Below, in pieces: positions 1 through 5,929 of a stretch of 5,929 bases of DNA (the stretch's first letter is position 1; each line of letters starts with the position of its first letter). Origin of the DNA: a virus (taxonomy: Duplodnaviria > Heunggongvirae > Uroviricota > Caudoviricetes). Location of the stretch: IMG/VR virus record IMGVR_UViG_2690316115_000016. One strand, given 5' to 3'. Made by a program: the position numbers.

Positions 1-3000
1 ATTTTCAAGAACCGTTCTGACAGCTTCGGCTTTGAACTCTTTAGAGTAACGTTGGGTTTTTCTGCTCATTATTAGCTCCTTCTGATGCCATTCTATTTCA
101 GGAAGGAGTGTCCGTTAAACTCAGGCTACCTCAAACATCCTGAAAGGTTTACTCGACTCTCTTATCCACGCCGGATTTGCGGAAGACGACGAGCAATTCG
201 ATGACATTCGCGTAATTCGCGGCGTGAAAGTGCCTGGCGGTAGAGTGGGGATAAAAATCACCGAACTGGAGAACATTTGATGAATGCTAAAATTCAAACG
301 ATACCTGAATTACTGATCTGCACCAGGGGAAATCAGACAGAAGTCGCCAGAATACTGAACTGCAATCGTGCTACAGTCAGAAAATACATTGATGATAAAG
401 ATGCGAAAAAGCACGCCGTCGTCAATGGCGTCCTTATGGTTCATCGCGGATGGGGTAAAGATACTGATGCGTGATATCCGGCAGGTTCTTGAGCGCTGGG
501 GGGCATGGGCGGTAAATAACTATGAGGATGTTACATGGTCGCCCATTGCTGCCGGATTTAAGGGACTGATCCCCGAAAAAGTAAAATCACGTCCACAGTG
601 CTGTGACGATGATGCGATGGTGATATGCGGGTGCATAGCCCGCCTTTACCGGAACAATCGCGATCTGCATGACTTGCTGGTTGATTACTACGTGTTGGGG
701 GAGACGTTCATGGCGCTGGCACGGAAACATGGGTGCTCTGACACCTGTATAGGTAAACGCCTTCACAAAGCGGAGGGGATTGTTGAAGGCATGCTGATGA
801 TGCTGGGAGTGAGGCTTGAGATGGATCGGTATGTTGAGCGTGAATTGCCGGGAGGGAGAAGCTCTGTATTTTATCAGCGAAAAAATAGTTTACGATCGTA
901 AAAATCTGCATATCATGATAAGAGTGGTTACATTGCCACGCAGCCGAACCCGCCGATGCGCGGGTTTTTTTGTACCCAGAATCCTGTGAGCTATACGGAA
1001 AGTACACAGAAAGGAAGGTACGACCGCAATTAATAACAAAATCTTAAAAATCTCATATGGCACTATTAGTTTTCTAAATATTGTATATTTTAAGTATTGC
1101 AGGATAACCCTGTAACGAAGTTTGCGTAACAGCATTTTGCTCTACGAGTTTGCCAGCCTCCCCTGGTGGCTGGCTTTTTTTGTATCCGTTCAACGGGAAT
1201 GTTACATACCTCACAATTAAGTCAGTTGAATGTTGTCTGCCCGGATGAGAATTTGTTAGAAAAAACTGCATGGTGAATCCCCCTGAGCGGAGGGGCGACT
1301 GGTGACGGTATAATCTCTGATTATCAAAACGAGAATGACGCGGGTTTAGTGGCACCGGGCTGAACTCACCGGGAGGCACCCGGCACCATGCAATGGCACA
1401 TAGCGCCACTCTCCAGCCCCTCTCCGGAGGGGCTTTCTTATGGACAAAAAAGCCCGCGCTGGGAGACGCGGGCGGCAAGGAATGAACAATGAAACGTGAA
1501 GTAATATTTCAGCTGGCGAATAATACCCCATAGTAATCACTCTGCGCAACTGCGCGACCTTTTTCGAATTGCGGGCTGTAGTCTCCCTTCTGCCATTGTC
1601 CTGTAACTTCCGGACTTCAGCCCGCTCCTTATTTTACTCACAATATTATCCCGGCCGGGAGGATTCATGGCATTTAAACACTATGATGTTGTCAGGGCGG
1701 CGTCGCCGTCAGACCTTGCGAAACGAATAACTCAAAAACTGAAGGAAGGGTGGCAGCCTTATGGTAGTGCGCTGATTTCGACAGCTGGTTATGGTGCGGA
1801 GTTCATCCAGCCAGTTGTGAGTGAGGGGAGCATCTCATCACCAGAGGAGCCAGGCAACCGTCCGACGACCTCAGCGCCTTCTGTTGCGCCAGAATATTAC
1901 TATGTGATCGCGCTTGCTGGTCAGTCCAATGGTATGTCATACGGTGAGGGACTGCCATTACCGGATACATTCGACAGCCCTGATCCACGTATTAAACAGT
2001 TAGCGCGTCGCAGTACGGTGACACCGGGCGGTGCAGCATGCAAATATAACGACATCATTCCGGCGGACCATTGTCTGCATGATGTGCAGGACATGAGCCG
2101 TCTTAACCATCCGAAAGCGGACCTGTCAAAGGGGCAGTACGGAACCGTGGGGCAGGGGCTGCATATCGCCAAAAAACTGCTGCCGTTTATACCGGCGAAT
2201 GCGGGCATTCTGCTGGTTCCGTGCTGTCGTGGTGGTTCAGCGTTCACCACCGGAGCTGATGGCACATACAGTGACGCGAGTGGCGCCTCGGAGAATTCAA
2301 CCCGCTGGGGTGTGGACAAGCCGCTGTATAAGGACCTTATCGGTCGAACAAAAGCGGCACTGGAGAAGAACCCGAAAAATGTGCTGTTTGCCGTGGTGTG
2401 GATGCAGGGGGAATTTGATTTTGGCGGTACGCCGGCAAATCATGCCGCACAGTTTGGTGCGCTGGTTGATAAATTCCGTGCAGACCTGGCGGATATGGCA
2501 GGCCAGTGCGTCGGTGGCTCTGCTGGCGGTGTTCCCTGGATATGCGGGGACACGACGTATTTCTGGAAGCAGAAGAACGAATCCACGTACCAGACGGTGT
2601 ACGGCAGCTATAAAAATAAAACGGAAAAGAATATCCATTTCGTACCGTTCATGACCGATGAGAACGGGGTGAATGTGCCGACGAACAAACCGGAAGAAGA
2701 CCCGGACATTCCGGGTATCGGTTATTACGGTTCGAAATGGCGTGACAGCTCAGCCACCTGGACGTCACAGGACAGGGCGAGCCATTTCAGTTCATGGGCT
2801 CGCCGTGGGATTATTTCCGACCGTCTGGCAACGGCGATTCTGAGCTGCGCGGGTAAGTCTTCTGCGTTTGTTAATGGTACTGCCGGGGTGGTTGTTCCAG
2901 ACAGACCGGTTACCACCTCAGAGTCTGTAATTTTTTACGATGCCAAAAAAGCTACAGACAATCAGCTGAAACCCTATGGCTGGGACGGTGTGTATGGCAG

Positions 3001-5929
3001 GCGCACACTGGTTGATGACAGCGGCAATAAAGCTCTGCGAATTGAGAAAAATAACAGCGCGAAATCCTGGTCAATGTACTGTGATATTGCTGCAGACAAG
3101 GCAAAACTTTTACTGGAAAAAGGCGGGGAAATTGCTGTCCGGTTTAAAATCCCCGAAAACGTCAATCTTGAGACAACCAGAAACAAGTATGCCTTTGGTT
3201 TGTACTGGCGAATAGCGGAATGGCCGGGTGAGGGTGGTGAAGGCCATCTGAGTTCTTTCTTTGTCCAGACAGATAAAGCCAGTATTAATGTTGCATACCA
3301 TCATACAGTTAATCAACAAAAAGAACTTGGCACGTTTGGCGCATTCGACCATGACTGGCATACGCTTGCATTTAAATTTAAGGGCAGTAACAGCATTAAT
3401 GTTACTCCGGTGCTTGATGGTGTGGATGGACAGGCGTTTGACCTGGTGAAATGGGCCAATACTGCTAATGGACTCAACAGGTTTGTCATTACGGATATTA
3501 CAGGTAGTGCAGAAACCTACCCTGTACTTATTGATACGGTGGAAGTTAAAGCAAACAAAGCTGGAGCAGCCGCATAATTGCTAAAAAAAGCCGCCAGCGG
3601 CAGGAATGGAAGCTGGCGGAGGTAATCCCAATGGAGAATGTAAAGAAAAGATGCTTTCGTACATTGGTTTTTTAAATGAAAACAATTCTCATTGTCAACC
3701 ATAACGGTAAGAAATTATGACATTTATTCATCAGGTGATGCTGTACTTCTGTACGGCGGTCTGTGTGCTGTATCTTCTTTCGGGTGGGTACAGGGCTGTG
3801 CGCGATTTCTGGTGCAGGCAGATTGATAAAAGGGCCGCTGAGAAAATCAGCGCCAGTCAGTCAGCCGGAAGCAAACCCGAAGAACCCGTTACTCCTTAAC
3901 AACCCCTTTCAGCGAGAAAATCCCATGTCAGAAATCACATCCCTGGTCACTGCAGAGGCAGTGAAGGAAGTCCTGCGCTCTGAAGAAGTCCGGAGCGCAC
4001 TGAAACAGAAACTTCGCCAGAATCTTGAGTCGCGTCTTGATGCAGAAGTGGATGCCATTCTGGATGAGCTGCTGGGCGTAGCAGCGGTTCCTGAGCCGGA
4101 AGGTATCGCGGGTGACGGGAGTGCTTCAGATGGCGGTGAACCTACACCTGACAGCGACATGATGATGTAAGCATGCGCAAGGGACCATCGGTGTGTGCCG
4201 GTGGTCTTTATATTGTTGTGAGCTTCCGGATTGCGGGAGACGGGGTATGTACCAGATGGAAAAAATCACAACAGGTGTGTCATACACCACGTCAGCGGTG
4301 GGAACGGGCTACTGGTTCCTGCAGTTGCTGGACAGGGTTTCCCCGTCTCAGTGGGCGGCAATAGGCGTGCTGGGGAGTCTGCTGTTTGGGCTGCTGACGT
4401 ACCTGACTAACCTGTATTTCAAAATCAAAGAGGACCGGCGTAAGGCGGCGCGGGGAGAGTAAGCTGATGAGCAGGAAATTCCGCTATGGTTTATCAGCGG
4501 TCGTTCTGGCGCTGATTGCTGCGGGCGCTTCTGCGCCTGAAATCCTCGACCAGTTTCTTGACGAAAAAGAAGGTAACCACACCACGGCATACCGTGATGG
4601 TGCGGGTATCTGGACTATCTGCCGCGGTGCCATCCTGGTGGATGGCAAACCTGTCGTTCCGGGCATGAAGTTGTCGAAGGAAAAATGCGACCGGGTTAAC
4701 GCCATTGAGCGTGATAAGGCGCTGGCATGGGTGGAGAAAAACATCAGAGTGCCACTGACCGAACCGCAGAAAGCGGGCATCGCGTCATTCTGTCCGTACA
4801 ACATCGGGCCTTCGAAATGCTTCACCTCAACGTTTTACCGGAAACTGAACGCAGGAGACCGGAAAGGTGCATGTGCTGAAATCCGCCGATGGATATATGA
4901 CGGCGGCAGGGACTGTCGGAACCGCTCAAATAACTGTTACGGGCAGGTATCGCGGCGTGACCAGGAGAGCGCGCTGGCGTGCTGGAGTATCGACAGATAA
5001 GCAGAATATTCTGCTGAAAAATGCCGTTGACCAACGCGAACGGATAACACGAAATCCTGCGAACTGGCAAAATTTAAGTGAGTAAAAGTAAAAACCCCGT
5101 TTGTTGGCAGCAAGCGGGGTTTTGTGTTTCTGACCTTGAATAAGGCAAGGGAGAAATTATGGGTAGGGAGGTTCTTTCCCTGTGAGGAAGTATAAAAGAT
5201 TCTTTCTGAGGTTGTCCATTATGAAAGGCATTGAGGTGGAGACGCCAGCAAGTCTGGATTTAACAAGAGCGGCAGCTTTTGCCATTCGTATTGTGGCAAT
5301 TGCTGTTCTGGTCTGGGCAATCCGTTGGTGGTGATATGAATCGTGTGCTGTATGGCGTGCTTATTGTCCTGCTGCTTGGTTGTGGATCGCTGTGGCTGGC
5401 AACAGACCATTACCGTGATAACGCCATCACCTACAAAGAGCAGCGAGATGATGCGAAGACAAAACTCAGCCAGGCGAACGCCACCATTGCTGACATACAG
5501 CAGCGCCAGCGTGATGTTGCTGCACTCGATGCCAGATACACCAGGGAGCTTGCTGATGCTAACGCGACTATTGAAAGTCTCCGTGCTGATGTTTCTGCTG
5601 GGCGTAAGCGCCTGCAAGTCGCCGCCACCTGTGCAAAGTCAACGACCGGAGCCAGCGGCATGGGCGATGGAGAAAGCTCAGGACTTACAGCAGATGCTGA
5701 ACTCAATTATTACCGTCTCCGAAGTGGAATCGACAAGATAACCGCGCAGGTTAACTACCTGCAGGAGTACATCAGGATGCAATGCCTCGATTAACAGAGC
5801 CAGCTCAATCGCTGGCCTTTTTTATGAGGTGAACCGCCCCGGGAATCCTGGAGACTAAACTTCCTGAGAAAGAGGTAAACAGGATGACTAAAAATACTCG
5901 TTTTTCCCCTGAAGTCCGTCAACGGGCAG

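Follow-up and report, generated by a model that had tools for sequence, protein, structure and literature searches.

The stretch of DNA analyzed here is IMG/VR virus record IMGVR_UViG_2690316115_000016 (Caudoviricetes; 5,929 nucleotides, hereafter the window). Its largest open reading frame (ORF), at 1667-3577, is very probably a genuine, intact copy of nanS-p, a late-region gene of lambdoid prophages of the 933W/phi24B type, residing in a prophage without stx. By the same assessment the gene is intact as the flanking insertion sequence (IS) insertions are very recent, and not through any selection shown here. This nanS-p is already known and ordinary, its product being identical to that of a much-studied outbreak strain. 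NanS-p esterases have been published, as have their presence in prophages without Shiga toxin (Stx) genes, the mosaic make-up of their domains and the insertion of IS3-family elements between Q and S, and the finding matters little beyond correct annotation.

Identity and domain composition of the nanS-p product

A first-pass annotation of the window had described a full-length 636-aa ORF with an intact GQSNG motif, a phage-specific domain at the N-terminus and a large one at the C-terminus, and had proposed a Pfam search. The ORF was recovered at exactly the same coordinates, with GQSNG at residues (aa) 85-89, and the search confirmed both outer domains. Pfam matched DUF1737 at aa 3-53 (E 5e-18), SASA (PF03629) at aa 152-276 (E 2e-10; 41 bits, with the cut-off at 24.8) and DUF6645 at aa 483-594 (E 2e-28). 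The SASA match was partial, covering profile positions 55-158 of 226; the full core (aa 72-393) aligned with the sequence of the crystal structure 3PT5 (E. coli NanS/YjhS) with an E value of 3.5e-118. The region aa 426-630 aligned with the NanS-p C-terminal domain structure 6YP6 (E 7e-42). The PHROGs family phrog_143 covered the protein from end to end, and no match to NCBIfam was detected. The product displayed the three-domain architecture of NanS-p, composed of DUF1737, a SASA core and a C-terminal region with the DUF6645/jelly-roll fold, which has been described together with a D/SASA/CTR variant scheme (PMC10462455).

The motif blocks of NanS have been tabulated as GQSNA (Ser19), RGGSAF, MQGEFD and SHFS (His301) (PMC10792757), and an (H/M)QGE motif has been described for SASA (PMC9487903). 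In the window protein, Ser87 of GQSNG aligned to Block I and occupies the place of the SGNH/SASA nucleophile. Block II (RGGSAF) was found at aa 188-193 and the SASA-specific Block III (MQGEFD) at aa 246-251. Block V (SHFS) was found at aa 372-375, with His373 aligned to the catalytic His of the NanS motif. The Block V Asp was lacking, as in NanS (PMC9487903; PMC10792757). The core was therefore placed within SGNH/SASA, by the Pfam SASA match above cut-off and by the 3PT5 alignment over its full length, and no loss of a catalytic residue was found.

The gene also occupied the late-region position typical of nanS-p, downstream of Q (467-901) and upstream of the holin gene S (4247-4462). The protein had no N-terminal signal peptide in its sequence. 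An AlphaFold2 model of the full protein, calculated without an alignment, was too poor to interpret (mean predicted local distance difference test 32.8, predicted template modelling score 0.23).

Intactness of nanS-p between two IS ends

The nanS-p protein was 100% identical (636/636 residues) to WP_000874468.1, which is present in the O104:H4 strains 2011C-3493, C227-11 and HUSEC2011 and in E. coli ML35. Only two nucleotide differences, both synonymous, separated the gene from that of O104:H4. Over the whole phage segment (134-5829), no difference in 5,696 bp was detected against the uninterrupted prophage of ML35, and nine were detected against the O104:H4 prophage (eight substitutions and one 1-nt indel). 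The sole indel concerned the length of a T run at 3668, between nanS-p and the DUF1378 gene, where the window agreed with ML35. The exact protein was indexed in 1,145 blocks of a public collection. All 10 of the contexts shown were prophages of the 933W/phi24B type; nine extended downstream as far as the genes for terminase, P22-type portal and capsid, and the tenth contig ended within the terminase gene.

Both flanks of this segment are IS ends, as the first-pass annotation had proposed when it placed one IS in the gene upstream of ninH and another directly after Rz. The interrupted gene was identified as rusA. Its 5' 216 nt were displaced by an IS600 end, while a full-length rusA is annotated at this place in ML35 and O104:H4. 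On the minus strand the IS600 terminus reads TGAGGTAGCC..., and it adjoins position 134. Copies annotated as IS3-like IS600 family matched this end at 100% identity over 135 nt, and the translation of the end matched HTH_Tnp_1. The left junction was placed by comparison with ML35, and apparent mismatches at 127-133 are alignment artefacts at the IS600 terminus. The right IS, of the IS629/IS1203 type, begins at 5830, 35 bp after the stop codon of Rz (5794). It was 99% identical to annotated IS3-family copies, and the plasmid matches reaching 5927 were annotated as IS1203 family. A full copy of this type, in the relative L015, measured 1310 bp, with terminal inverted repeats matching at 23 of 25 positions and a 3-bp target duplication. 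The two flanking elements are different IS3-family species; their left inverted repeats (IRL) face the phage DNA and their transposase genes read outward. Both IS600 and IS629 are elements typical of Shigella, which hints at a source that is Shigella or similarly rich in IS.

Exact-match scans found neither junction in GTDB representative genomes, nor the left junction in JGI metagenomes. Queries of 120 nt found neither junction in 5,426 complete E. coli genomes, and neither appeared in a plasmid search with the whole window or in the contexts of the exact protein. The description of the window as an IS-bracketed prophage fragment therefore stands in part. The bracketing by IS ends was verified; the word fragment was not, because the window stops inside both elements, so that continuation of the prophage beyond them is not visible and a fragment looks the same as a simple IS interruption.

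The first-pass annotation had further held that the retention of an intact esterase gene fits the view of host-beneficial cargo, plausibly for the use of O-acetylated sialic acids; on this account selection has kept the gene whole in a decaying, IS-ridden remnant. This claim was not upheld, and we consider it unlikely for the present locus. Zero divergence from the uninterrupted prophage of ML35 means that there was no time for decay; an intact ORF is then the neutral expectation, and selection had nothing to protect against. The neighbouring genes ninH, Q, DUF1378, DUF826, holin, lysozyme, Rz and Rz1 were equally intact, among them Q and the potentially lethal lysis cassette. Two random IS insertions would miss the 1.9-kb nanS-p with a chance of 44% in a 5.7-kb segment and of 94% in an assumed prophage of ~60 kb. 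Insertions of IS1203/IS629 inside nanS-p are documented (PMC10462455), and IS-split alleles exist in phages PA21 and PA45, where a mobile element with two ORFs divides nanS-p close to the 3' end of the gene (L017, PA21, 301-3552). As judged from the sequence, intactness between two IS elements says nothing about selection at this locus. An intact ORF in an IS-struck prophage would count as evidence of selection only if its neighbourhood had measurably decayed, and the divergence here is zero.

The cargo idea draws its strength from the family at large. Growth of EDL933 and O104:H4 on 5-N-acetyl-9-O-acetylneuraminic acid (Neu5,9Ac2) is reported to require nanS-p alleles (PMC8065619; PMC6313751), DNA resembling nanS-p was present in 2,251 of the 5,426 complete E. 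coli genomes at up to 14 places per genome, and the esterase domain showed a ratio of nonsynonymous to synonymous substitution rates (dN/dS) of 0.11-0.14, indicating purifying selection on the family. The benefit of NanS-p to lysogens on Neu5,9Ac2 is an idea from this literature and not from the window. If the protein is a virion component, the low dN/dS may equally reflect selection on the phage. The usual label of host-beneficial cargo for NanS-p now competes with evidence that the protein is part of the virion structure.

It is possible, though less probable than not by a clear distance, that NanS-p is conserved mainly for the phage, with DUF1737 decorating the capsid and aiding the binding or crossing of mucus or the de-O-acetylation of surface glycans; the benefit to the lysogen would then be a by-product and the present copy a leftover. 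The homologous protein gp84 was located on phi24B capsids with a Tyr42 anchor and density up to Gly54 (bioRxiv 10.64898/2026.04.10.717836). The window protein's N-terminal domain is identical to this capsid-binding domain, which offers a phage-level explanation for the conservation of the gene as well. The position in the late operon without a signal peptide, and the P22-type portal and capsid genes in nine of the 10 contexts shown of the identical protein, point in the same direction. Against this stand the growth phenotypes reported for lysogens and the explicit statement that the enzyme has no demonstrated role in infection (both PMC8065619); moreover, the window cannot separate selection on the phage from selection on the host.

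Two further accounts treat the block between the IS ends as a unit, and both are far less probable. In one, Q, PR', STnc100, nanS-p, holin, endolysin and spanins would form a minimal, domesticated enzyme-plus-release module of an IS-trimmed phage, in which a lysing subpopulation frees the esterase as a public good without virions. This is highly improbable, as nothing positive speaks for it and the block is identical to that of an ordinary intact prophage. In the other, the Q to Rz block between IS600 and the IS629-type element would be a composite-transposon-like unit moving the esterase together with the lysis module. Two IS3-family ends do bracket a compact block of 5.7 kb. However, they belong to different IS species and both turn their IRL ends to the block, neither junction was found again in the complete E. 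coli genomes, the GTDB representatives or the JGI metagenomes, and the block lies in its normal prophage position in every relative. A composite transposon was rejected on account of the different IS species and the lack of a second occurrence of the junctions, and we regard it as the least probable of the accounts.

Several points weigh against our own reading of an intact nanS-p allele left whole by recent IS insertions. Since the Pfam SASA match is only partial, the family placement rests mainly on the alignment with 3PT5. The esterase activity reported for nanS-p alleles is not tied to this exact allele, and the capsid decoration suggested for the protein is carried over from a preprint on a related phage. 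The C-terminal domain is 43% identical to the crystallised one, so that its binding specificity may differ. Finally, the IS600 insertion in rusA, which separates Q from the early promoter, may interrupt the supply of Q, and this makes expression of this copy uncertain.

Gene arrangement and the missing toxin locus

The gene map was obtained by transferring the ML35 annotation to window coordinates and checking each gene by Pfam (Table 1). The order Q-PR'-tR'-nanS-p-S-R-Rz was conserved; Q, nanS-p and holin followed one another in this way in ML35, O104:H4, phi24B and an Stx1c phage. The window holds no phage head genes.

Table 1. Features located in the window, in nucleotide positions unless marked as amino acids (aa) of the nanS-p product
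Feature	Position	Strand	Remarks
IS600 left (IRL) end	1-133	-	first 23 codons of the orfA transposase; start codon at 69
rusA, 3' remnant	134-280	+	last 48 codons and stop; Pfam RusA profile positions 84-123 of 124
ninH, intact	280-474	+	Pfam Phage_NinH E 2e-30; DNA identical to ML35
Late antiterminator Q, intact	467-901	+	144 aa, Q933-like length; Pfam Phage_antitermQ E 2e-50, full profile
PR'-like late promoter, qut region, tR' hairpin	889-975	+	promoter/terminator scan; promoter 889-916, hairpin 946-967 with T run; 97% identical to the phi24B stretch annotated as late promoter, qut and terminator
Second terminator	about 1150-1180		
Empty tRNA/stx site	1181-1245		homology breaks relative to phi24B and the Stx1c phage
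STnc100 prophage small RNA gene, full length	1240-1445	+	Rfam RF02076, 165 bits (gathering score 47), E 3e-38, model positions 1-206 of 206
nanS-p	1667-3577	+	636 aa; ATG start; end coordinate includes the stop codon
nanS-p: DUF1737, putative capsid-binding domain	aa 1-54		Y42, G54
nanS-p: SISSP linker motif	aa 55-59		
nanS-p: SGNH/SASA esterase domain	~aa 75-392		S87, H373
nanS-p: jelly-roll/lectin-like C-terminal domain	~aa 426-636		DUF6645
DUF1378 small protein gene	3717-3899	+	Pfam E 1e-35
DUF826 small protein gene	3925-4170	+	Pfam E 3e-44
Holin S, P21-type, class II	4247-4462	+	Pfam Phage_holin_2_1 (PF04971) E 7e-33
Endolysin R, phage lysozyme	4467-5000	+	hydrophobic N-terminus (MSRKFRYGLSAVVLALIAAGASAPE...); Pfam Phage_lysozyme E 5e-25
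37-codon ORF	5221-5334		
Spanin Rz	5336-5794	+	Pfam Phage_lysis E 8e-37
Rz1, embedded in Rz in another frame	5556-5741	+	lipobox ...LGVSAC; proline-rich translation
IS629/IS1203-type IS3-family element, left (IRL) end	5830-5929	+	orfA starts at 5884 (MTKNTRFSPEVRQRA...)

The prophage had been called toxin-less, and this was corroborated: ORF and tRNA scans detected no stx ORF and no tRNA gene within the window, and comparison with relatives revealed an empty site at ~1181-1245. Homology to phi24B ran to 1180, through the late promoter, qut and two terminators, and resumed at 1246, so that the tRNA genes of that phage and its stx locus are skipped. In comparison with the Stx1c phage, the break fell between 1189 and 1198, and 1.76 kb including stx1AB were absent from the window.

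The STnc100 gene, which lies between the late terminators and nanS-p, is closed by a terminator-like hairpin at 1415-1434. A second copy, 75% identical, lies directly after stxB in the Stx1c phage (L014, 4055-4305). The small RNAs STnc100 and PasD have been tied to the neighbourhoods of esterase genes (2026 preprint).

In the lysis region, the P21-type holin and the endolysin with its hydrophobic N-terminus are consistent with the pinholin/SAR-endolysin pair of Stx phages (PMC10462455). A Pfam match to Rz1 was obtained at the equivalent place in the relative L012. Rz is followed at 5799-5829 by a hairpin that resembles a terminator and has a T run (GCCAGC-TCAATC-GCTGGC-TTTTTT), and the right IS stands directly behind it. 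In uninterrupted relatives, Rz is followed directly by an oppositely oriented moron, annotated as a heptose(II)-phosphate phosphatase of the lipopolysaccharide core (His_Phos_1; L001 11753-12334 and L002 11752-12333, minus strand). This moron takes the place held by bor in phi24B, which in the window is occupied by the IS.

Proposed function and comparison with known systems

By homology to phi24B and from the literature, transcription of nanS-p would start at PR', the late promoter situated directly behind Q. Polymerase modified by Q would pass tR' and the STnc100 region, transcribe nanS-p and continue into the lysis genes S, R and Rz/Rz1. Expression of nanS-p has been reported to rise on induction together with stx (PMC10462455). 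Because the product has no signal peptide, only phage-mediated lysis would bring it to its substrate, as free enzyme or attached to capsids. In phi24B, gp84 decorates the capsid as DUF1737 hexamers on the central hexons, as seen by cryo-electron microscopy; its density ends near Gly54-Ser57, and self-cleavage has been proposed to occur at SISSP (bioRxiv 10.64898/2026.04.10.717836). Tyr42 and Gly54 are present in the window protein as well, followed by SISSP. By analogy, its DUF1737 domain would bind the central hexons of a cognate T=9 capsid as a hexamer, and the linker might release the enzyme as proposed in the preprint.

The catalytic steps are modelled on NanS (~60% identity) and on the 933W/phi24B enzyme (99%). 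Ser87 as nucleophile and His373 as base would form a Ser-His dyad without the usual Asp, as in NanS, and the (M)QGE block would shape the oxyanion hole. The enzyme would remove the 9-O-acetyl group from Neu5,9Ac2, free or on mucin glycans, and yield N-acetylneuraminic acid that E. coli can catabolise. The variant jelly-roll C-terminal domain probably binds carbohydrate, as others have proposed. Active Neu5,9Ac2 esterases that support growth on this substrate have been obtained from the alleles of EDL933 and from each of the five nanS-p alleles of O104:H4 C227-11phi-cu (reviewed in PMC8065619; also PMC6313751). A protein identical to that of the window is encoded in C227-11. De-O-acetylation of both Neu5,9Ac2 and mucin glycans has been described (PMC8065619).

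Among known systems, the prophages of O104:H4 and ML35 were the closest. They share with the window the flanking genes from rusA to Rz, with DNA 99.8-100% identical. In contrast to the window, these prophages are uninterrupted: rusA is complete, and behind Rz come the gene for the heptose(II)-phosphate phosphatase and those for terminase.

The product vb_24B_21/gp84 of phi24B agrees with the window protein in its three domains and in genomic position. Residues 1-74 were 100% identical, including Y42, G54 and SISSP at 55-59, and aa 1-392 differed at three positions only. For L0105 (z1466) of 933W, identity over aa 1-392 was 98-100%. The substitutions in this region relative to the 933W/phi24B prototype were A124V, E233K and A257V. 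From residue 393 onwards, the linker and C-terminal domain of 933W/phi24B are of another type with 43% identity, and the prototype has 645 aa compared with 636 in the window. The linker and C-terminal domain of the Stx1c phage, on the other hand, were 98% identical to the window type. A recombination breakpoint was located inside nanS-p at ~2843 (codon 392/393). On these comparisons the allele is a domain mosaic, in agreement with the D/SASA/CTR variant scheme (PMC10462455). The 933W/phi24B prototype sits downstream of tRNA genes and stx2, both of which are absent from the window.

The esterase core also aligned with chromosomal NanS (YjhS, 3PT5) over ~320 residues at ~60% identity. GQSN, RGGSAF, MQGEFD and SHFS were kept, and the Block V Asp was lacking in both proteins. 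However, chromosomal NanS is a single-domain protein of ~326 aa and belongs to the nan regulon, unlike the three-domain protein of the window.

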